From Methanomassiliicoccales archaeon (lineage in GTDB: Archaea > Thermoplasmatota > Thermoplasmata > Methanomassiliicoccales > UBA472), in NCBI GenBank assembly GCA_036504055.1, contig DASXVU010000045.1, positions 70,147 through 134,146 on the forward strand: 64,000 nucleotides of DNA, in the 5' to 3' direction. Under the pieces are notes generated by a model that saw nothing but the letters and a program-made list of their open reading frames with translations, was not told the origin of the DNA and did no database searches. Position 1 is the first letter of the stretch; the number at the start of each line of letters is the position of its first letter. Position numbers and translations under genes: made by a program. Shown in pieces: positions 51,568 to 62,963 of the stretch.

Positions 51568-53250
51568 TTGATGCCAGCATCGAATGGCGGGACGGCTTGG
51601 GAAAAATTCTCGGCCAAAGGTGACGGGCTCATCGCTTTCCTGGAGAAGGAGCGGCTTCCGATCATCGGTGTTTTCGTCTACGTCATACTGCTGGCTTTAG
51701 GCCGGGACATGGCCGAGTACTACCTGTTGGACGCCGAGTTCGTCAACACCGTGCATCCCTGGATCTTCAGCATCGCCCACCACGTCTCCTTCTATGTGGT
51801 GGTGTTCCTGGGGCTGGTGCTGTTGCTTACGGCCTTCTCGGGAAGGGGTTTCCGTCGCTCCCTTAACCTCATCACCAACATCTATTGGCTAATTCTCATC
51901 CCCCCGTTCCTGGACCATTTCGTGTTCGGACTGAACGAGAGCTATGCCTATTTTTCCTGGACCGAATACCTTAATGCGTTCTTCCAGTTCCGAGGGCGGA
52001 CCTTTCATCCAGGGCAGGGATTGGAGGTGGCCGCGTTCCTGTTCGCGCTGTTCGCCTACGTGATCTGGACCCAAAGGAACAGCCTCTTCTTCATCAAGGA
52101 GAGAGCGGTAACGCTACTGCGCGTTTTCTTCCTGGTCCTTTTCACCATCATCTCGATGTTCATAGTCGCCACCCCTGGAGCTTACCTCCCGGTCGGCAAC
52201 ATCGACGGCATGCCGGCCTTCCCCTACTTTGACCAGACGAAGTACTTCCAGTTCCATCTGTTCCTGGTGATGTATTACGTCGTCGCAGGCCTGCTCCTGG
52301 TGACGGTGATCGCATATATGGCCATGAAGGGCTCCTTCCGCCGCCAGATCGCCAGCATGCGGCCGTTCCAGACCCTGTTCTTCGGCATGATCGTGGCCGG
52401 AGGGATGGTGGTCGGATGGAGGACGGTCGATCCGGAACTGGTGATGTCGATAACCCAGACCCCTTACTGGGTGAACATCACTTACGTTATCCTATCGATA
52501 GCGTCTGCCCTCCCGGCCTGGCAGGTCAGCACCATCTGGAACGATATCGCCGATAGCGGGTTCGACGATCCGACTAAGACCTGGAGAACGATCGCGTCCG
52601 GGACCGTGGACCGGGGCACTATGTTCCAAGGGTCCATCGTCATGATGCTGGTGGCTCTGATGGTGGCGCTCCTTCTCTCCTTCACGGAGTTCCTGTTGTT
52701 GGCCCTGATCTTCGTCCTTTCCTATCTGTATTCGTTCAAGCCGGTGCGTTTCAAGGAGCAGGTGATGAGCCCGGCGCTGATCGGCATCGGGGCATCGTTG
52801 GCGTTCCTCTACGGCTACCTGACGCCATACACCGTGGTCGTGACCCAATACCAGTATGACACGCCGGTGATCTTCTTGACGGGGGCGGTGGGGGTCGCCC
52901 CGCTGAGCCTGACGTCCTTCATGATCGCCGCCGTCATATTCCTCGGACTGGTCATCGGGTCGATGGTGACCGACGTTTCCGGCTACGAAGAAGACAAAAA
53001 GGCCAACGTGAGGACCGTATACACCAAGCTAGGTTTGGGAAAGGGGGCATTGCTGGTCTCGGCCCTGATATTGGTCGCTTCCTTCACTCCCTTGGTGCTT
53101 TTCTCCAGACCGACGGATCTTGTCCTGTTCCCTGTGATGGGCGTGGTTGCCGCGGGATGCTTCTACAGGTACCGGAGCTCACGGCTGGTCATGGGCGTGG
53201 CGCTGATCGGCTTCATTTATGCGACCCTCAGGTATCTGGGCATGATCTAG
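51568..53250 (+). CDS. UbiA-family prenyltransferase-like protein with a large N-terminal multi-TM extension
   Basis: C-terminal half has NDIADSGFD...RTIASG and TDVSGYEED..NVRT motifs; 560 aa. Confidence 0.72.
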   Translation: MMPASNGGTAWEKFSAKGDGLIAFLEKERLPIIGVFVYVILLALGRDMAEYYLLDAEFVNTVHPWIFSIAHHVSFYVVVFLGLVLLLTAFSGRGFRRSLNLITNIYWLILIPPFLDHFVFGLNESYAYFSWTEYLNAFFQFRGRTFHPGQGLEVAAFLFALFAYVIWTQRNSLFFIKERAVTLLRVFFLVLFTIISMFIVATPGAYLPVGNIDGMPAFPYFDQTKYFQFHLFLVMYYVVAGLLLVTVIAYMAMKGSFRRQIASMRPFQTLFFGMIVAGGMVVGWRTVDPELVMSITQTPYWVNITYVILSIASALPAWQVSTIWNDIADSGFDDPTKTWRTIASGTVDRGTMFQGSIVMMLVALMVALLLSFTEFLLLALIFVLSYLYSFKPVRFKEQVMSPALIGIGASLAFLYGYLTPYTVVVTQYQYDTPVIFLTGAVGVAPLSLTSFMIAAVIFLGLVIGSMVTDVSGYEEDKKANVRTVYTKLGLGKGALLVSALILVASFTPLVLFSRPTDLVLFPVMGVVAAGCFYRYRSSRLVMGVALIGFIYATLRYLGMI

Positions 53251-53252
53251 GA

Positions 53253-54431
53253 TCAGAGCGAGGAGAAGAAAAGTCTCGGGAAGGACGGTATCGTCTCCGC
53301 CAGCAATCTCCGCCAATCGTCCGCCCCGACCGCTATCCCCTCGGAAGCGCGGACGATGCCCTCATAGCCGATCACGTTTCCGAAGAACTTGTCAGTGTCT
53401 ACCACGCCGATGAGCCAGTGCAGGACCGGGGCGATGATCTCGGCGGCCCTCATGTCCCTTACGATGTTGTCTTTGCAGAGCCGGTCATATCTTGCCAACG
53501 GATCTTTCACTGAACCGGACAGCAGGCCTTTGAGAGCCTCGGTGGCATAACCGGCGCTCTGGAAGGCGTAGGACATGCCCTCTCCGCTGATCGCGCTCGT
53601 GAGACCTCCGGAGTCTCCCACCAACAGCGTTCGTCTGGTGTGCAGCACTTTACGCGCCCGAAGTGGGATCGGGTGGGCCGCGTAACCGCTGATGTCCGGC
53701 AGGACCCCCGTTCTCCGTTCCAGGTCAGTGGAAACCGTGACCATCGCCTTCCCCATCGCCTCGGCGGAATAGCCCGAACCCACAACCCCGATGTTGCATC
53801 CGGTGCGCAGCGGGAACATCCATCCCATGAGAGGGAAGCCTGGACCCCAGCGTATATGCTTCGTCGGAGAGTCGATGAGGAAAAGCTCAATCATATCGCC
53901 ACGATCGATGTCCTCGTTGCACTCCACCGCCATGCCAATGGAGGAGAACTTCCCTGGATAAGGACCGTACAACCGGCTGGCGTTAACGCTGGTCGCCCCT
54001 TCGGCGATGATCAGGGCTTTTGCCCGGAGATCGCTGGCACCGACCTGGCAGTCGACGCCGCCTTCATCCTCTCGTACATTCTCCAGCTTGTGGCCCTGCA
54101 ACACCTCACAACCGGCATTCTCCGCTTTCGCGACCAGGAACGCGTCGAACTTGGACCGGCGGACCATCGAGATGACGACCTTGCCGCTGTCGAGGGTGTG
54201 CATGTGCCCATCATGGACCACCTTGACCCCGGTGACCTTTCGTTCGAGTACGTCCTCTGGCACCGGGAAATCCAGCATGCCGAGGGCGCGCTGCATCACG
54301 CCGCCGGCACAGCATTTGCCGCGCGGAAGCTGCTCTCTCTCGATCAGACCGACCTTGTACCCGCTCTTGGCGAGCAGGTACGAGGCGTAGGAGCCGGAAG
54401 GTCCTGCCCCGGACACGAGCACATCGTACAC
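53253..54431 (-). CDS. Geranylgeranyl reductase family FAD-dependent oxidoreductase
   Basis: DVLVSGAGPSG, RRSKFD..L, GWMFP, LVGDSGG.....SGEGMSYA. Confidence 0.88.
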   Translation of the reverse strand: MYDVLVSGAGPSGSYASYLLAKSGYKVGLIEREQLPRGKCCAGGVMQRALGMLDFPVPEDVLERKVTGVKVVHDGHMHTLDSGKVVISMVRRSKFDAFLVAKAENAGCEVLQGHKLENVREDEGGVDCQVGASDLRAKALIIAEGATSVNASRLYGPYPGKFSSIGMAVECNEDIDRGDMIELFLIDSPTKHIRWGPGFPLMGWMFPLRTGCNIGVVGSGYSAEAMGKAMVTVSTDLERRTGVLPDISGYAAHPIPLRARKVLHTRRTLLVGDSGGLTSAISGEGMSYAFQSAGYATEALKGLLSGSVKDPLARYDRLCKDNIVRDMRAAEIIAPVLHWLIGVVDTDKFFGNVIGYEGIVRASEGIAVGADDWRRLLAETIPSFPRLFFSSL

Positions 54432-54455: not shown

Positions 54456-57400
54456 TTACTCCTTCCTCTTTCTTTCGGCCCGTTCGATTACCGCCTCGGC
54501 CACGACGATGCCGAAGACCCCGAAGAGGGGCCATAGGAACGTCAGGTCGACATAGCCGGTCTTGATGTTGATCACCGAGCCCGACGTGTCCAGCACATTC
54601 ACCGGCTGCTCGCTGAACTGCCATCCCCCGGAGGACTGCTGGCTCGTGTATATCCAAAGGGTCGATGTGCTTCCGGCGGTGTAGGTGTAACCCGGGCTGA
54701 AACCGATGGCCATGGCGATATCCATGAAACCGTCTCCGTTGAAGTCGCCTAGCTCGACCGCCTTGACGTCATACGCGTTCGTCCCGATCGCGGCGGACGC
54801 TGCCACCACTGGGATGTTGATTGGAACTCCCAGCTGGGTACCGGAATTGATGCTGGGGATGACGAACAGGGCGTGGTTGGCATCCCCATTCCCTATCATG
54901 GTGGTGCCTACCACAATGTCCAGATAACCGTCCGGCTTTGTATTACTATAGGACGGACCCACGTCCGCCACCGCCAAAGAGGTGATGTAGTTCGGGCTGC
55001 TTATGCCGGGTATCGACTTCTGCCATTTAGTGGAATCGAAGTCCCAGGAGACAGCCGGCGAGTAGTGCGTAATGTTCAACTTATTCACGCAAAGCGTATC
55101 ATTGACTATGTCCGTCGCCTGCCTGTTCGTGTCCTCGATCCTGATATAGTACTTCGAGTTCACTGTGTGCAGGAGCATCCCTGAGTAGTTCTTCTGGGTC
55201 GTGCTCGAGATGGTGAACAGGTGGAACCAGGTCTCATTGTCTGGTGAGTAGGACACATTGAACGAGTCCCCGGCAGTTTTGACCTTGGCGTTGATCGTCA
55301 GGTTGTGCCAGATCTCATTCGGTAGGTTTGGTATCTGCCAGTCCCACTGTACCTGTCGGGACACCGCAAACTTCACCTCTAGATATATGTAGTCGAAACG
55401 CACCGCGCCCGAACCCGTGGTTTCGTCGTTGTAATATCGGAAGCAAATGTTCTGCAGCTTCGCCCAGGTGTTTATGCTGTCGGCCCCTTGACCGTTAAAC
55501 AGATCATATGTCAAATTGACTGAGAGTTGGGTGTTAGTGGGTTTGATATTGGTGTTCATCCATGTGCTTCCGCCGTCCTTTGACCATTGCAGATAGCTAT
55601 TGCCATCGTAATCGGCCAACACCCAGTACTTGGTTCTCATCATGACCTGAGTGACCTGCATCCCACTGTACGACGAATCCGCACTGGCCATGGCGACGCT
55701 GAGCGTCTGATGTCTGTCCACATTGTAGGTTTGTCCGTCATCGCGCTGCAGATTCGACACTGTCTGATTTATGGTCGTATCCCCTGCTGCTTTCGTTATT
55801 GGCCTATCGAACAGGACAGAAGAGTTCTGGAAGACCTCTGTTAGGTTCTCCCATTTGTTGTCTATCGCAGTCAGATCGGCCTTGCTTCCAGTGACCTTGG
55901 CCGTAATCCCGGTCCCGCCATATTCAAGGACCGGGAAATTTTGTGTTTTGGTCGGTTCGGCCCTCTTCGTGATGATCACATAGACGGTGTTGACCGATGC
56001 CGCGGCCGCGCTGGTCCTCACGATATCAGGATAACCGTTGCCGTCCACATCAGCCACCCTAAGCCTAACGGCTCTGCCAGCCAATTCCCACGGCCCCGCG
56101 GTTCCCGGAACGGTCGGTACACTTGTCGATGGCATGAGCGATGCCGTGGTGTTGAACGCGGCATTGAACGGATCGGACGTCGACTGCACATCGCTCCACT
56201 GACTGAGCCATATCTTGGTGACACCGGTCTCATAGACCGCCACTATATCGTCGCATCCGTCCTGGTTGAAGTCCCCTGTGGCAATGTCGATGGCCGCTGG
56301 GTTGTTGTTGCCGTTAGCGTCCAGGAGAGTTGCTCCCTGTTTGAAGGCCGGGAAGTAATCCCTTGATCCGTACAGTGGGGTCATCTTCCAATCCATGGCC
56401 CCACCGTTGTTCCACAGAACGTACAGACCGCGGTTGAAGAACATAGGGGTGTTCAGCGCTGGGTTTGATTTCGCTGCATCCTCAGTGGTCGCGGTGGAGT
56501 GAACGACCACATGGATAAGGCTGACAACGATGTCGGTATGACCGTTTCCGAAATTGCCTGCTGCCATTGCTCCAATGATGTCATAGGACGAATAATAATC
56601 GTTGTCGAACTCGGGTGTGTGACCCCAAGACGTCGTGGCCGCATAGACGGTAACGTCAGCGTTGCCCAGCCCTTTACTGCTGCCACCATCCTTCCAGAGG
56701 CCGGGGGTTCCGTCGAGGGATTTCATTAGACGGTAGGGATTTGACCATGATAGGCCATCAACTGACTGGCTGCGATACCAGGCGACACCGACGCTCGGGT
56801 CCTGGAATCCGACTGCCAGGTCCTGGCGGCTGTCTCCGTCCAGATCCGATTGTACCAGCCCTATTGGTCCATTATATGTCTTGGTCGGAAGGGCAATGTC
56901 TATCTTTTGCCATTGCCCGGTCACCTCGCCGTTCTTGAACCATGCGAGCTGGCTATTTTGCCAGGAGGCTCCGGATGAGCTCCAGGTGAAAGCGCCGGAA
57001 CCGATGCCCGCTATGATGTCCGTCATCGTCCGGGGAGCGGTGATGTTGAACTGGACGGTCAATGAGTGATACGTTTCACCGGTTGTCGAGTTGGCCCCAG
57101 CATCCTGGAACGTGTCTATCGTAAGGGTGTACGAGTTCCTCCTCGGCAGCCACCATCCGGCGTTCGCGTCGATGGGCTTGAAGTAGAAGGTGTAACGAGC
57201 CGACGGATCGTTGGATGATGTCTTCCCATCGGCTATCCAGGTTGCCCCGTTGGTTGAATCTGTCTTGAAGACCGAGCTGACCGGGGCGGTATAGATCGGA
57301 ACCTTGATGCCGGCCGGATTGGCCGCCGGCATTGTCGGGGTCTTTCTTACAACATAACGGCCAGAATAGTCGCTCACCGTCAGGTCGTTCATGAAGACGC

Positions 57401-58766
57401 CGGTCATCTGGCCGTCGACATCGAGAGTGGTCAGCTTGACATATATGGTATCGGTAAGTGAGAAGTTGGCAGAAGGCACCAGAACCCCTCCGCTCAAAAT
57501 ATAAGTGGCAACCTTTGGGTATTGAGCGTTGTTGATGATTATCTGGTCCCAGATGTTGACGACCGTCCCTATGTTGTCCTTCAGCTTGATCTGTATGGGA
57601 TAAGTGTAGCCAATGTTGGGGGCGTTGAACGTGTAGTTATAACGGTAGAAGTCTCCGTAGATACCACCGTATTGGAACGCCGCGGTCGAGCTCGGCGGGG
57701 TCATGATGTTGCCGGTCAGCGGCATATAGACCAGCAGGTTATTGTCAATGGCCAGGTTCCTAAGTGTATCGCTATACACTTCGACCAGTATCTGTTCGCT
57801 GGAGTTGAAGTTCCTGGTTATGTTGCTGTCGGAGGCGCGGCGGATGTAGTAGAATGTGGTCCCTGCCTCTCCCATCGTCTCTCCGGCCTGACCGCCGCTA
57901 GCATCCGGAGGATATGTTCCGTTTGTCAGGTAACTGGAATAGTTGGTGTATGGGCCATTGTAGCCGCTACCGCCGCCAGAGGTGGTCTTGGACACAACGA
58001 TAACGAACTGAGCGGTGGCGTTCTTGCCTAACGAGTCATACGCATTGAAGAATATCGTCTTGCCATTCCATCCACTGTAGGAAGCCAAGTATGTGCTTGT
58101 GCTGGTATAGATCCCGTCGTGGTTAGTGTCGGTCAAGGTGATGTTGTTCGATAGACCGATACCGGAAGCATCGACCCAAACCCCAGCCAGGTTATTCTCC
58201 AGGTCGGTTATGGTGGCATACAAATATACCGGATCCTTATCATAGACCGGTGACGGGGTGAAACCCCGGGCACCAATGATGGGCGGCGTGTTCTGGTCGG
58301 TCTTGTTGCCTGCCAATACCGCTTCCCATACGATATTGTTGGTGGTCTTGTCCACGATCATCAGACGAACGGTCATGCCGGAGGAGTAGGGGGTGGTGTC
58401 ATAGGACCAGACCTCGCCTATCTTCCAGTCGTTGCCTATGCTGGGGTTGCTGGATGAGATGTTGAGAACAGTGGGAATGTCGTTCTTGAAGAGGTATATG
58501 TTAGTGGAATCCTGGGTCAGCGTCTGACCGCCCTTGTGGGTTATGTTCATATATAGATGGCTGCTGGAGGTACCGACCTGAGCACTGAAGTCGCTGAGCG
58601 TCTGGTCCTGTGGCGCAGGCATGTTCGTCACGAAGAATAGGACACCGGTGAACAGTGAGACGGTTATGGCCAGTATGAGCAGGTTGCCTATGATCTCAGA
58701 GACACCGTGGCGGCTTTTCCTGAGATTCTTGCTGTTCCGATGATAATTGCTCTTTTTGTTGGTCAT
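54456..58766 (-). CDS. Giant archaeal type IV pilin-like adhesin (class III signal peptide, FG-GAP propeller, C-terminal TM), 1436 aa
   Basis: RKSRHG/VSEIIGNLLILAITVSLF; repeats such as DLDGDSRQD, GDFNQDGCDD, DVDGNGYPD, GDFNGDGFMD; C-terminal LTFLWPLFGVFGIVVAEAVIERAERKRKE. Confidence 0.85.
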   Translation of the reverse strand: MTNKKSNYHRNSKNLRKSRHGVSEIIGNLLILAITVSLFTGVLFFVTNMPAPQDQTLSDFSAQVGTSSSHLYMNITHKGGQTLTQDSTNIYLFKNDIPTVLNISSSNPSIGNDWKIGEVWSYDTTPYSSGMTVRLMIVDKTTNNIVWEAVLAGNKTDQNTPPIIGARGFTPSPVYDKDPVYLYATITDLENNLAGVWVDASGIGLSNNITLTDTNHDGIYTSTSTYLASYSGWNGKTIFFNAYDSLGKNATAQFVIVVSKTTSGGGSGYNGPYTNYSSYLTNGTYPPDASGGQAGETMGEAGTTFYYIRRASDSNITRNFNSSEQILVEVYSDTLRNLAIDNNLLVYMPLTGNIMTPPSSTAAFQYGGIYGDFYRYNYTFNAPNIGYTYPIQIKLKDNIGTVVNIWDQIIINNAQYPKVATYILSGGVLVPSANFSLTDTIYVKLTTLDVDGQMTGVFMNDLTVSDYSGRYVVRKTPTMPAANPAGIKVPIYTAPVSSVFKTDSTNGATWIADGKTSSNDPSARYTFYFKPIDANAGWWLPRRNSYTLTIDTFQDAGANSTTGETYHSLTVQFNITAPRTMTDIIAGIGSGAFTWSSSGASWQNSQLAWFKNGEVTGQWQKIDIALPTKTYNGPIGLVQSDLDGDSRQDLAVGFQDPSVGVAWYRSQSVDGLSWSNPYRLMKSLDGTPGLWKDGGSSKGLGNADVTVYAATTSWGHTPEFDNDYYSSYDIIGAMAAGNFGNGHTDIVVSLIHVVVHSTATTEDAAKSNPALNTPMFFNRGLYVLWNNGGAMDWKMTPLYGSRDYFPAFKQGATLLDANGNNNPAAIDIATGDFNQDGCDDIVAVYETGVTKIWLSQWSDVQSTSDPFNAAFNTTASLMPSTSVPTVPGTAGPWELAGRAVRLRVADVDGNGYPDIVRTSAAAASVNTVYVIITKRAEPTKTQNFPVLEYGGTGITAKVTGSKADLTAIDNKWENLTEVFQNSSVLFDRPITKAAGDTTINQTVSNLQRDDGQTYNVDRHQTLSVAMASADSSYSGMQVTQVMMRTKYWVLADYDGNSYLQWSKDGGSTWMNTNIKPTNTQLSVNLTYDLFNGQGADSINTWAKLQNICFRYYNDETTGSGAVRFDYIYLEVKFAVSRQVQWDWQIPNLPNEIWHNLTINAKVKTAGDSFNVSYSPDNETWFHLFTISSTTQKNYSGMLLHTVNSKYYIRIEDTNRQATDIVNDTLCVNKLNITHYSPAVSWDFDSTKWQKSIPGISSPNYITSLAVADVGPSYSNTKPDGYLDIVVGTTMIGNGDANHALFVIPSINSGTQLGVPINIPVVAASAAIGTNAYDVKAVELGDFNGDGFMDIAMAIGFSPGYTYTAGSTSTLWIYTSQQSSGGWQFSEQPVNVLDTSGSVINIKTGYVDLTFLWPLFGVFGIVVAEAVIERAERKRKE

Positions 58767-59131: not shown

Positions 59132-62100
59132 TCAATAGGTCTGGAACTTCCTAGCATCCAGATCGTTAATTCCTCCAGACCCGATTATCTGATTATCAAC
59201 GACGTAATACTGCCATCCCTGCGTCTTGAGACCCTGATAATTCGCATAATAGCAGATCGCGCTCGAGGTGGCCAAGAGTATGTCAGTCCTACCATTTCCA
59301 TCCACGTCCGCCGCAATCATCTTCACTATGGATTGACCGGTCAGAAGGGCGAATTTTGCATCATATGTTCCAGGTGTGGTCTTGTTCTGGTTTATTAGAT
59401 ACACGCCAGTAGCCGTTGAGACAGCGATATCCAGATATTTTCCTTTGTAAGGATTGAAGAAATTTCCAGCCCCAATATCCAACGCATTGGAGATTCCGGT
59501 GGAATATGGAGAGGATGGGTGATCAAAGATGGAGGAACCAGCGCAGTTCATGAATGCTACCAATGTCCCAGAACCTCCGATGGCAACTATGTCGTTGGCC
59601 CCGTCCCCATTCATATCGGCAACTGTCAATGCGGCAATGCTTGTTCCCACCGATGTCACTGTCGCCCCTACCGTGGTCACAGTCATCTGACCGATCTTCA
59701 AATAGGATTCTCCAGGCGTAGCTGTTTTGATCCAGGGCGCTGAAGCCTTGATCTTTATTATTCCAGTCGAAGTTACCCCGGTAATTATTCCAGAATATTG
59801 AGTGAACGAAGACCCTACTCCAACATAGAGATGAGTGGAGAAGGATTTGAAGGTCAACCCATTATCGATCGAATAGTTGAACTCGATCTTATCACCATCA
59901 TTGCTGGCAGATCTAAGGGCAAACGCTGAGAATGCATAGGTGGATCCAGAACTTGGTACCTTTACCGTCCAATTGTGATCCATTATATCCCCGGTAACCC
60001 AGGTAACGTTCAAAGACCAGTACCTGAAGTCCACGCTGGTGGATAGAGGGTTGGAATTCTCATAGGTGATATTAAGGGTCTTCAATGAACTGGCCAATGG
60101 GAATTTGCTCGTCAGATCATAGCTCGCCCGAACCCAGCCGCCTTCGGTATTCTGGATGTTGATCATGTTGGATGACGTCTCAATTTTGCCCGTTTCGTTA
60201 CTCCAGGTTATGTAATCGGTTCCATCATTATTCCCGTTCGTCTTGTACATTACCTCGAAGGTTACCTGGCTGGTCGGAAGATCATTTATCAATCCAGTGC
60301 CGTCCCAATTGACGATCGATGCGTTGCTGCCTCCGGCCACAGTGTATGGATTTGATGCGGAATTCGCATATTGCAGTTGCGAGATGTCGTCTGGACAGTT
60401 ATCCAGCACGCCTTTCGGTGCTGCGGGTACTGAGATCTGATGCCTCATTGTCAACTGTTCCTGAACCTCTTCATAGATCCAGGGTACCTGTATCGCGCTG
60501 GTTGTGTCCAGATAACTACCAGTAATGATATCGTTTGTAGAATCCTCCCCGATGGCAAAATCCTGAGTTGTCGTGGTTGAAGAAGATAACTTGATCGGGT
60601 TCCAAAGGGTACCGATTCCGTTCTGGTTCTTGAAGACGGTTATGGTCCCGTCGGTCCTTCCGACCACGATGTCCATTGAACGATTTATATCGACGCCGGA
60701 CGATCCAGGAGGCACCATGTTGGCCACCTGGATGGAACTAACCGGTGAACCTGAACCCACTACAGTATATTTGGACCAGATTCCGTCGTTCTTATACAGA
60801 GTCACCGCACCGCTTGCATAGCCTACCACGATGTCCAGTGTCTTTCCCAGACCTGTATTTCCAAGCTGCACGTCAGACGCTGTTCCGGAAATCGATGATA
60901 TCCAGTACTTGTCGAACCCTCCGCTGCTCCGCTGGATGAACAGATACAGATTCGTGCCACCGTCGTCCTCCACGGCCACAAAATCTGTTTTTCCATCCCC
61001 GTTGATATCCCCGGCACGAATGATCGAGATCACCGGATTGTATGATTTCTTGTCGGTTGTGGTCTCCAGCATAAGCGGAGGGTACCAGCTGTTGTCATTT
61101 TTGTAGTAGAGGAGCGAAGCTTGACTCTGGAATCGAGCGCCCCCTTGAGGTTCACCACCTGCAACGATGTCCAATTTGGTGGTCGGAGAAGTGACATTGA
61201 TCACATTTGATAGGACGTAGGTCTCTGTCCCGGCTTGGAACATGTCATATTTTAGAATATAGGCGTTAAATCCAGGTAGCCATGGGGTCAATCCGGTGAC
61301 GTTATACAGATTGATCTCGAAACGATATTTGTTCACTGCGCTCTGCCAGACGTTGCTCACTGAACCGGTCCAATGGGTCACGTGCTGAGAATAATATGTC
61401 GTCGGTGGATAGGGCGAGTCGCTCGGTGGGGTGTTGCTCAATTGGGAATCCCAGAAGAAATCACGTATCTCGACCAGGCCAGACCCGGGGACCCAGGCCC
61501 CTCCGATCTTCGTCGTTATCTCAACATAGACCACATCACTATCTGTGTTGTATGTTGTAAAGCTAGTCGTTTTCTTCGTAAAACTTGAATCCGAATATGT
61601 CGTGAAGGTCGGCAATTGAGTAACTGATGCCCCGGCTGTCTTGATCAGGATCATCTGATTCATCATGAACGCATTGTTGGGATTCCAATTATCCTTCACC
61701 TTCACATCAAGAAGGTAATATGCGGTCAATGAAGGAAGTAGGGATGTATTAATCGAACAATTATATATATAATATCCAGATAGAACATCTAATGGCTGGA
61801 ATGAATTTATCGGGGATGAGACACCTGATTGTACTTGTTTTGTCGTGTCATTCATCACGAGGATCGAATTCATATTCTGGACATTGACCACGAACTTGCT
61901 TGCGATGACGACCACGGCCGTCTGCCCTTTGTCAAATGTGAGGGTCGGTGTTGCACTGTATTTGTGTAGGTTCCAGTCACTCCATTCGAAGATTTGGAAG
62001 CCTTGTAGCCCACTGTAATCTAGATTTCCTGGCGGGGAACCGGATCCCGAACCGCCGTTATTGTCAATGTTGTTACCACTTTGATTTTGCATTACTGAAA

Positions 62101-62875
62101 GAGTAAATTGGACGGAGGAAGTTGCCCCCGCCCGATTCGTTGCATTGAAGAACACCGTCTGACCGTTCCAATCGCGGTACGATGCCTTGTAAGTCAGGTT
62201 GGAAGTAAAGATGCCATCATTGTTTGAATCCCAGAGGACGACATGATTGTTGGTGACTCCCGGAAGGAAAGCGGCATTCATATAAACGCTAGCAATGTTT
62301 GCCAAGCCATTGACATCGACAACCGTTGCGTAGAACTTGACCAGATCCCCATCATATGCTGGCATAGGATTGATACCGCGACTACCGATTATCGGAGGAA
62401 AGTTGTTATTGGCATTACCAGCCAACGTTGCTTGCCATACTATGTTATTCGTGGTCTTGTCCACAACCATTATTCTTACCGAATCGCTATTTTTATCGAA
62501 GTTGCTAAGGATATGCGACCAAACTCCACCGATATTCCAGACATTCCCAAGTTTGGGATCGCTTGAGATATAGAGCAGCTGCAGGTCATTGTTTTTGAAC
62601 AAATAGATGTTGGTTGAATCGTTACTGAGCGATTGCCCTCCTTTGTGTGTTATATTCATATATAAATTGGAACCGGATATGCCGGTCTGGGCACTAAAAT
62701 CGCTTAGCGTTTGATCCTGTGGCGATGGCATGTTGGTCACGAAGAACAGGACGCCGGAAAACAGTGAGACGGTTATGGCGAGGATGAGCAGATTACCAAT
62801 GATCTCCGAAACCCCGGTCCTGCATTTGCGCAATCTCTTGCCAGACCCAAAATAGTTGCTCTTTTTGTTCGTCAT
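59132..62875 (-). CDS. Giant archaeal type IV pilin-like adhesin paralog (class III signal peptide, FG-GAP propeller, no TM anchor), 1247 aa
   Basis: Start reset to ATG 62875 (MTNKKSNY, as in the paralog); RKCRTG/VSEIIGNLLILAITVSLF; GDINGDGKTD, ADMNGDGAND, ADVDGNGRTD. Confidence 0.85.
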   Translation of the reverse strand: MTNKKSNYFGSGKRLRKCRTGVSEIIGNLLILAITVSLFSGVLFFVTNMPSPQDQTLSDFSAQTGISGSNLYMNITHKGGQSLSNDSTNIYLFKNNDLQLLYISSDPKLGNVWNIGGVWSHILSNFDKNSDSVRIMVVDKTTNNIVWQATLAGNANNNFPPIIGSRGINPMPAYDGDLVKFYATVVDVNGLANIASVYMNAAFLPGVTNNHVVLWDSNNDGIFTSNLTYKASYRDWNGQTVFFNATNRAGATSSVQFTLSVMQNQSGNNIDNNGGSGSGSPPGNLDYSGLQGFQIFEWSDWNLHKYSATPTLTFDKGQTAVVVIASKFVVNVQNMNSILVMNDTTKQVQSGVSSPINSFQPLDVLSGYYIYNCSINTSLLPSLTAYYLLDVKVKDNWNPNNAFMMNQMILIKTAGASVTQLPTFTTYSDSSFTKKTTSFTTYNTDSDVVYVEITTKIGGAWVPGSGLVEIRDFFWDSQLSNTPPSDSPYPPTTYYSQHVTHWTGSVSNVWQSAVNKYRFEINLYNVTGLTPWLPGFNAYILKYDMFQAGTETYVLSNVINVTSPTTKLDIVAGGEPQGGARFQSQASLLYYKNDNSWYPPLMLETTTDKKSYNPVISIIRAGDINGDGKTDFVAVEDDGGTNLYLFIQRSSGGFDKYWISSISGTASDVQLGNTGLGKTLDIVVGYASGAVTLYKNDGIWSKYTVVGSGSPVSSIQVANMVPPGSSGVDINRSMDIVVGRTDGTITVFKNQNGIGTLWNPIKLSSSTTTTQDFAIGEDSTNDIITGSYLDTTSAIQVPWIYEEVQEQLTMRHQISVPAAPKGVLDNCPDDISQLQYANSASNPYTVAGGSNASIVNWDGTGLINDLPTSQVTFEVMYKTNGNNDGTDYITWSNETGKIETSSNMINIQNTEGGWVRASYDLTSKFPLASSLKTLNITYENSNPLSTSVDFRYWSLNVTWVTGDIMDHNWTVKVPSSGSTYAFSAFALRSASNDGDKIEFNYSIDNGLTFKSFSTHLYVGVGSSFTQYSGIITGVTSTGIIKIKASAPWIKTATPGESYLKIGQMTVTTVGATVTSVGTSIAALTVADMNGDGANDIVAIGGSGTLVAFMNCAGSSIFDHPSSPYSTGISNALDIGAGNFFNPYKGKYLDIAVSTATGVYLINQNKTTPGTYDAKFALLTGQSIVKMIAADVDGNGRTDILLATSSAICYYANYQGLKTQGWQYYVVDNQIIGSGGINDLDARKFQTY

Positions 62876-62934
62876 GATCGTCGCCTTCCCTCTGGCATCT
62901 ATGCAGGAGACAATCCGACTCATCCAAATGGTCA

Positions 62935-62963
62935 CTATTTATTTATTTGGAGTTGATAATCAA
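62935..62963 (-). promoter_or_regulatory. Putative promoter and palindrome of pilin-like gene 2
   Basis: CTATTTA-N12-TGATAATCAA; TTGATAATCAA is a 5-1-5 palindrome. Confidence 0.55.

Follow-up and report, generated by a model that had tools for sequence, protein, structure and literature searches.

A giant pilin-like protein of Methanomassiliicoccales with a conserved C-terminal membrane helix: a candidate surface protein held in the membrane at both ends

A class III (pilin-type) signal is commonly read as the mark of a filament subunit or of a protein assembled into a filament. The window analysed here, a stretch of 64,000 nucleotides from a Methanomassiliicoccales genome (assembly GCA_036504055.1, contig DASXVU010000045.1, positions 70,147 to 134,146), raises the question of what such a signal means when the same chain ends in a second hydrophobic segment. 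It encodes two very large proteins, protein 1 (p1) and protein 2 (p2), which both score above the curated Pfam cut-offs for Pilin_N and FG-GAP. A first-pass annotation had pointed out that p1 alone has a hydrophobic C-terminal segment followed by ERAERKRKE and that p2 stops at DARKFQTY, and the open reading frames (ORFs) and hydropathy profiles confirm this. The reading that we favour, with a probability of about 0.55, makes p1 a surface protein whose two ends are both anchored in the membrane, with an integrin-like propeller lying on the membrane, and sees it as a fixed adhesin or envelope component and not as a polymerising pilin. The gene of p1 and its parts are located in the window as follows.

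54456..58766, minus strand: p1, 1436 amino acids (aa), with a class III N-terminus, a beta-rich stalk, an FG-GAP propeller into which beta domains are inserted, and, at the C-terminus, a membrane helix and basic tail
58704..58766, minus strand: basic class III signal leader, residues 1-21 (MTNKKSNYHRNSKNLRKSRHG), with prepilin-peptidase cleavage predicted after G21
58620..58703, minus strand: N-terminal hydrophobic pilin-type helix, residues 22-49 (VSEIIGNLLILAITVSLFTGVLFFVTNM), which matches Pilin_N (Kyte-Doolittle maximum 2.50, Hessa sum -2.6)
54555..57029, minus strand: FG-GAP beta-propeller with inserted beta-sandwich domains, residues 580-1404, as modelled by AlphaFold2, with the last strand at 1397-1404
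54537..54554, minus strand: connector YVDLTF, residues 1405-1410, leading from the last propeller strand to the predicted helix, six residues long and free of any Ser/Thr-rich linker
54486..54545, minus strand: C-terminal membrane segment L1408-I1427 (LTFLWPLFGVFGIVVAEAVI), delimited by hydropathy, conservation and predicted structure
54459..54485, minus strand: predicted cytoplasmic basic tail ERAERKRKE, residues 1428-1436, with the stop codon at 54456-54458

The C-terminus of p1 reads SVINIKTGYVDLTFLWPLFGVFGIVVAEAVIERAERKRKE; it is made of the segment LTFLWPLFGVFGIVVAEAVI and the nine residues that follow it, and the stretch 54456-54560 that the first-pass annotation had flagged corresponds to residues 1403-1436 and the stop codon. 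The proposal that this stretch is a membrane helix with a cytoplasmic basic tail is supported by Kyte-Doolittle hydropathy, by the AlphaFold2 model and by the conserved Lys/Arg end. The Kyte-Doolittle maximum in a 19-residue window is 1.99 for the tail, compared with 2.50 for the N-terminal helix. In the predicted structure the last beta strand is followed by a single helix, residues 1411-1435, with a low predicted local distance difference test score (pLDDT), as is expected for a lone membrane helix. The nine terminal residues include five basic and three acidic ones, in agreement with the positive-inside rule, and the predicted topology is self-consistent, with the basic leader inside, the ectodomain outside and the basic tail inside. 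We read the segment as a real yet marginal membrane helix, not a strongly hydrophobic one.

To the pilin-type N-terminus and the propeller the profile searches gave clear matches: p1 reaches 44.3 bits with Pilin_N (PF07790; cut-off 25.2) and 52.3 and 29.8 bits with the FG-GAP profiles PF01839 and PF13517. The 104 proteins that the homolog search gave belong to Methanomassiliicoccales or other Thermoplasmata. Among about 100 of these homologs the class III signal is common to the anchored (p1-like) and the unanchored (p2-like) class, with a basic leader of 13-60 residues and Gly or Ala at -1, and both classes conserve VS[ED][IV][IV]GN[IL]LIL[AG]ITV after the cleavage site, in which VS[ED][IV][IV]GN occupies +1 to +7. 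AlphaFold2 modelling of p1 residues 580-1436, with 50 orthologs aligned, gave a beta-rich structure with a mean pLDDT of 86.6. Integrin alpha chains were among the best Foldseek matches of the propeller model by E-value, with low TM-scores of 0.15-0.2. Among sequencing runs, the sequence was listed for only one DNA run, a soil metagenome, and for no RNA run.

The tail is a constant property of one class of these proteins. The orthologs divide cleanly into anchored and unanchored proteins, a split that the first-pass annotation had suggested looking for: all 72 full-length p1-like orthologs found in Methanomassiliicoccales (1354-1486 aa, down to 37% identity) have the tail, and all of about 27 p2-like or more distant homologs (1126-1294 aa) lack it. 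A frameshift or read-through origin, for which the tail would have been missing from the orthologs, is ruled out by its presence in 72 of 72. Within the 74 tails aligned, I1399, N1400, G1404, L1408, P1413 and G1416 are invariant or nearly so: P1413 is found in 74 of 74 and G1416 in 72, together forming a Pro-x-x-Gly motif, while L1408 is kept in 71 and D1407 in 59. Gly or Ala occupies position 1419, 42 of the 74 tails have Glu at 1424, and a Lys/Arg cluster is retained at the terminus in every ortholog of the anchored class. The C-terminus has in this way a three-part layout, namely D-L-[TS]-I...P-x-x-G, hydrophobic residues and the Lys/Arg cluster. Mean pairwise identity within the anchored class is 45-49% in the tail, compared with 42% in the body. 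A tail more conserved than the body is unusual for a passive anchor, and judging from this conservation the p1 tail would not be one.

The genome itself (2.66 Mb, 99.9% complete) provides a reference for what an ordinary anchor looks like. Besides p1, at least 37 large proteins encoded in it have a Sec-type signal, a low-complexity linker rich in Ser, Thr and Asn, a hydrophobic C-terminal helix and a Lys/Arg tail, and C-terminal anchoring combined with a Sec signal appears to be the standard mode of surface anchoring in this archaeon, which has no archaeosortase. These generic anchors resemble that of p1 in placing a C-terminal helix and then a Lys/Arg cluster on large, secreted, beta-rich proteins. 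They are, however, strongly hydrophobic, stand behind a low-complexity linker and are not conserved in sequence, whereas the p1 tail follows the propeller directly, after six residues, has an invariant Pro and a near-invariant Gly and is conserved in sequence. Moreover, p1 combines its C-terminal anchor with a class III signal and the generic proteins combine theirs with a Sec signal. A search for a family sharing the p1 tail in this genome was negative, since the tail profile matched p1 alone and the next best hit had E = 1.

On the favoured reading, the class III signal would insert the N-terminal helix so that the N-terminus faces the cytoplasm and everything behind the helix is outside, and a prepilin peptidase is predicted to remove the basic leader after insertion. 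The ectodomain of about 1380 residues would be exported, and the conserved C-terminal helix with its Lys/Arg cluster would act as a stop-transfer anchor. Because only six residues separate the propeller from the C-terminal helix, the propeller would lie directly on the membrane, and the remaining ectodomain would arch back to the pilin-type helix, which at most might dock p1 to a type IV pilus-like platform.

The same annotation had taken p2 for the filament-borne form, and the idea that p2 is in this sense a partner of p1 was not supported. The second protein is encoded upstream of the p1 gene in the window:

59132..62875, minus strand: p2, unanchored class, 1247 aa from a probable ATG at 62875 (ORF 59132-62935), a mosaic gene with low GC content at third codon positions (GC3)

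p2 matches Pilin_N with 42.4 bits, ends at the propeller and shows no second hydrophobic segment in the Kyte-Doolittle profile. It is 36% identical to p1 over the first ~730 residues and barely alignable beyond, and it is colinear over its full length with the proteins P0093 and P0078, at 40-41% identity. Residues 1-100, including the genus-specific leader MTNKKSNY..., are 80% identical to p1, and residues 300-1247 are 35-60% identical to the unanchored class of other genera versus 15-30% to p1. GC3 is 0.55 for p2, 0.70 for p1 and about 0.78 for the neighbouring genes. This mosaic pattern suggests that p2 may be a recently acquired gene of the unanchored class whose pilin module was homogenised with that of p1, by horizontal acquisition and then gene conversion.

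Synteny and phyletic distribution agree with each other on the relation between the classes. At three loci of other genomes (L012, L013 and L014) the unanchored protein lies between CobA and a block formed by a 209-aa protein, PDDEXK/helix-turn-helix, HSP20 and Cdc48 genes, and at two others (L009 and L010) the anchored protein occupies that same slot between CobA and Cdc48. Across an order-wide sample of 151 genomes of Methanomassiliicoccales, about 51 have an anchored-class C-terminus, about 20 have the unanchored class only and about half have neither. Both states are found inside several genera. Among the genomes examined the two classes occur together in that of the window only, and a complete genome of the same genus has p1 without p2. 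On this evidence the two classes are alternative occupants of one chromosomal slot and not partners, and p2 as an obligatory partner of p1 is ruled out by the phyletic pattern and the synteny. Two cassettes that alternate at one locus suggest a switching of surface type between species. In a further genome of the same genus (G105, C1:1252045-1255997) the p1 ortholog is broken by two in-frame TGA codons and a break, which could be a pseudogene, an assembly error or recoding. The genomes with neither class belong mostly to one family with a single T2SSE ATPase and to one genus with none; the family (genomes of 1.0-2.3 Mb) is almost without giant pilin-like proteins, with weak N-terminal matches in two genomes, and the genus has neither class at all.

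What travels with the anchored class is a pair of lipid genes, which lie next to p1 in the window:

53253..54431, minus strand: flavin adenine dinucleotide (FAD) protein of the geranylgeranyl-reductase (GGR) family, 392 aa, starting 24 nucleotides past the p1 stop (TIGR02032, 170.5 bits, cut-off 158.8)
51571..53250, plus strand: UbiA-family prenyltransferase (residues ~295-559; Pfam UbiA, 54.2 bits) fused to an N-terminal membrane domain of ~290 aa, convergent with the GGR gene

In every locus examined the GGR gene is on the same strand as the anchored-class gene and follows it by 20-30 nucleotides. The order p1, GGR and convergent UbiA fusion (~560 aa) is kept at L009, L010 and L011, and at L011 the trio stands amid otherwise unrelated flanks. 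Neither the GGR gene nor the UbiA fusion was found in the unanchored-class loci examined. The fusion is present in all 51 genomes with an anchored-class C-terminus, and in 49 of these the fusion and the anchored-class gene share a contig, converge and lie 1.2-2.5 kb from each other. The gap is 1.2 kb, corresponding to one reductase gene, or ~2.45 kb in about ten genomes; the only locus with the longer gap that was examined (L015 4743-7172, genome G039) has two tandem GGR-like genes of 396 aa each. Five genomes carry the fusion without a detected anchored-class C-terminus: the contig of one (L017) ends at the reductase gene, another has an N-terminal piece of the protein only, and two other genomes have the fusion near a contig start or are incomplete. 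From gene order, the anchored class appears always to be inherited as a three-gene cassette with the GGR paralog and the UbiA fusion. With the N-terminal helix present in either class and the ectodomain lying outside the cell, no part of the protein other than the tail is both peculiar to the anchored class and located in the membrane or cytoplasm, and we infer that the tail is the likeliest contact point with the UbiA-fusion enzyme.

The fusion protein was modelled by AlphaFold2 with a pLDDT of 89, and its C-terminal half resembles digeranylgeranylglyceryl phosphate (DGGGP) synthase and other UbiA structures. The N-terminal domain (51571-52440) is multi-helical and has many invariant polar residues (R29, R46, D47, E50, D55, H72, D116 and E153). 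Searches with it in Pfam (E up to 10), with PDB profiles and with Foldseek gave no match, only the UbiA half being matched, and the domain shows no cysteine and no recognisable protease signature. An exhaustive HMMER search with this domain retrieved only 38 proteins, and 8 of the 10 distant ones tested have a UbiA match, mostly as the same fusion. At L018 (582-3215) the gene of a distant fusion homolog stands between an archaeal prepilin-peptidase-like gene (Arc_PepC), which it directly follows, and a downstream gene for a Cys-rich secreted protein. Another, at L021 (4004-7730), has as neighbours a GGR-like gene, another UbiA gene and genes for secreted surface proteins, including PKD-domain proteins. 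Two more (L020 and L022) adjoin AttH, the first of them together with carotenoid-synthase and radical-SAM genes.

The enzymes that could process either end of p1 were also surveyed. As the first-pass annotation had stated, there is no PGF/PEF-type motif: no NCBIfam sorting-signal model matched the whole of p1, nor four isolated tails at E up to 10. In the genome TIGR04178 (archaeosortase/exosortase) and PF04203 (sortase) gave no match at E up to 1, and TIGR04178 did match the positive controls, the genomes of M. jannaschii, H. volcanii and M. acetivorans. A known C-terminal sorting domain was rejected for the p1 tail on these grounds. A rhomboid (103.6 bits) is encoded elsewhere on the contig (C45:33864-34313) and is not linked to the p1 locus. 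A CPBP/Rce1-like protease is encoded a few kb upstream in anchored-class and unanchored-class loci alike and is therefore not specific to the anchored form. For the N-terminus, a Peptidase_A24 candidate is found at C16:50147-51034 (a 295-aa ORF, 29.5 bits summed), and four T2SSE ATPases score above the cut-off. Genes for a 343-aa pilin-like protein, two ATPases of 574 aa each and two platform proteins form a type IV pilus-like locus at C34:80428-86879, which adjoins a 1873-aa surface protein. Beyond p1 and p2, the genome has only two other Pilin_N proteins. One, of 141 aa (C34:129031-129456), is a candidate true pilin. The other is a third paralog of 277 aa (C36:15060-15893), 54-57% identical to p1, that has nothing beyond the pilin module and the first beta domain; a same-genus genome keeps it as a 278-aa ORF, and it adjoins a 1115-aa Sec-signal surface protein with a generic C-terminal anchor.

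Several observations speak against a protein anchored at both ends, and three other explanations draw on them. Membrane insertion, retention of the tail and cleavage of the leader are predictions from sequence. As a plain sum on the Hessa scale (best 19-residue window), the p1 tail scores +2.9 kcal/mol, with an ortholog median of +2.65, versus a median of -2.9 for the 37 generic anchors; with a positive sum, the tail may depend on a partner for insertion, or its helix may fail to cross the membrane. The latter possibility, an interfacial or partner-packed helix that leaves p1 anchored by its N-terminal helix alone, is also in keeping with a Pro, three Gly and one Glu within 20 residues. We nevertheless consider it very unlikely, given that the Kyte-Doolittle value exceeds the usual threshold of 1.6, that the terminal Lys/Arg cluster is conserved in all orthologs and that the predicted helix has the length typical of a membrane-spanning one. 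The plain Hessa sum also takes no account of residue position. By the established position dependence of insertion, a Glu near the cytoplasmic end costs little, and with E1424 near that end the sum overstates the insertion penalty. A role in a pilus is suggested by the confinement of both classes to lineages with at least two pilus-type (T2SSE) ATPases, which leaves room for a filament-related function. The N-terminal helix would then join a type IV pilus-like structure and the C-terminal helix would remain membrane-bound, making p1 a terminator or anchor at the base, or part of a priming or platform complex, in the manner of a minor pilin that is never released. Conservation of the pilin-type N-terminus is extreme and extends to Glu or Asp at +3, the closeness of the N-terminal modules of p1 and p2 suggests that the module must fit one host machinery, and the genome holds the locus with a pilin-like protein, two ATPases and platform proteins as well as small pilin candidates. 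This explanation is nonetheless quite doubtful, as the gene was never beside pilus-machinery genes in the loci examined, the correlation with ATPase number (absence from the one-ATPase family and the zero-ATPase genus) is confounded by phylogeny, a propeller beside the C-terminal helix puts the functional head at the membrane and not on a fibre, and a 1436-aa subunit with a fixed C-terminus cannot polymerise.

A conserved motif followed by a hydrophobic segment and a basic cluster is also the layout of cleaved sorting signals, and the tail might be such a signal in a dedicated system with a single substrate. Cleavage at or close to the conserved D-L-T...P-x-x-G would be the work of an intramembrane enzyme, for which the N-terminal domain of the UbiA fusion and the rhomboid are the two candidates, and the new C-terminus would be released or joined to an isoprenoid lipid made by UbiA and saturated by GGR, a function like that of archaeosortase A on PGF-CTERM proteins but without homology. 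The three-part layout with its invariant Pro and near-invariant Gly points in this direction, and marginal hydrophobicity with helix-destabilising Pro and Gly in a single-pass helix sets the tail apart from the 37 generic anchors, in a genome that has a rhomboid gene and lacks archaeosortase and sortase. The tail is moreover strictly co-located with a polytopic membrane enzyme whose 290-aa N-terminal domain is rich in invariant polar residues and has no known homolog, whose UbiA half has its closest match in DGGGP synthase, which acts in the synthesis of archaeal lipids, and of which one distant homolog directly follows a prepilin-peptidase-like gene. Set against this, no NCBIfam sorting-domain model matches the tail, each genome has one tail-bearing protein only, the N-terminal domain has neither cysteine nor protease signature, and we know of no chemistry by which a UbiA enzyme modifies a protein. 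The other distant fusion homologs adjoin AttH, carotenoid-synthase, radical-SAM or GGR genes; their neighbours are lipid or carotenoid enzymes and not pilin-like proteins, which argues for a purely lipid-related role, and we regard a cleaved signal as unlikely. The GGR and UbiA pair may simply make a lipid or a lipid-linked glycan donor without touching the tail. One deletion removes all three adjoining genes, so that their linkage partly reflects physical adjacency.

A broader and speculative proposal, to which we give a low probability, is that the anchored protein, the GGR paralog and the UbiA fusion form a self-contained and previously undescribed system of protein anchoring or lipidation in an order that lacks archaeosortases. 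The tail would serve as a recognition handle, the 290-aa domain would bind or process it, the reductase would saturate a lipid that becomes the final anchor or a private lipid environment, and species would switch cassettes at one slot. Full-text literature searches found no description of p1 or of its lipid-gene cassette. The envelope of Methanomassiliicoccales is poorly understood; a review mentions a possible double membrane and no data on an S-layer (PMC4243693). As a single-copy protein of ~1400 aa, p1 is a candidate for a major envelope or adhesion component. The strict linkage to GGR and the UbiA fusion offers a testable handle on how surface proteins are mounted where archaeosortases are missing, and the cassette hints that archaea may attach proteins to their cell surface in a way not described so far. 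A cultured species that appears to have the cassette, Methanomassiliicoccus luminyensis, makes bench tests of the predictions feasible; its p1 ortholog (P0068) and UbiA fusion (P0162), both with a longest contig of 126,785 bp, are probably on one contig.

Comparison with known systems places p1 next to several of them. Archaeal class III proteins that do not form filaments, such as the sugar-binding proteins of the Sulfolobus bindosome, and bacterial modular minor pilins (Streptococcus sanguinis PilB and PilC, TadG of Tad systems) also use a pilin-type N-terminus to carry a large functional ectodomain, with a basic leader, Gly at -1 and a hydrophobic helix, and depend on prepilin peptidase. 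They have a single N-terminal membrane helix, whereas p1 adds a conserved C-terminal helix with a cytoplasmic basic tail, reaches 1436 aa and is not encoded near transporter or pilus genes; the combination of a pilin-type N-terminus with a conserved C-terminal membrane helix was not found described in full-text literature searches. With archaeal type IV pilins p1 shares the Pilin_N match, the leader, Gly/Ala at -1 and the presence in the genome of a prepilin peptidase candidate and of ATPase and platform genes, but pilins have only the N-terminal helix in the membrane and can be extracted into the filament, and the second conserved hydrophobic helix of p1 does not fit this. The three-part C-terminus on a large protein of the surface glycoprotein type recalls PGF-CTERM and archaeosortase A (Haloferax S-layer glycoprotein), PEF-CTERM, PEP-CTERM and LPXTG; in PGF-CTERM-type signals, however, the motif precedes the hydrophobic segment and in p1 the Pro-x-x-Gly is inside it, and p1 differs further in matching no model, in having no cognate archaeosortase/exosortase or sortase and in being the one tail-bearing protein of its genome. 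Like p1, integrin alpha chains combine an FG-GAP beta-propeller with one membrane helix at the C-terminus and, behind it, a short basic tail in the cytoplasm. Their propeller is distal, on legs of immunoglobulin-like domains (thigh and calf), with a free N-terminus and a beta-subunit partner, whereas in p1 the propeller lies against the membrane helix and a further membrane helix takes the place of the free N-terminus; no gene like that of an integrin beta subunit was found in the p1 locus, and at the low TM-scores given above the likeness is at the domain level only. p1 has one feature in common with each of these known systems and fails a defining feature of each family tested, and its class represents an order-wide conserved pairing of a pilin-type N-terminus with a second, sequence-conserved membrane helix that is incompatible with polymerisation.

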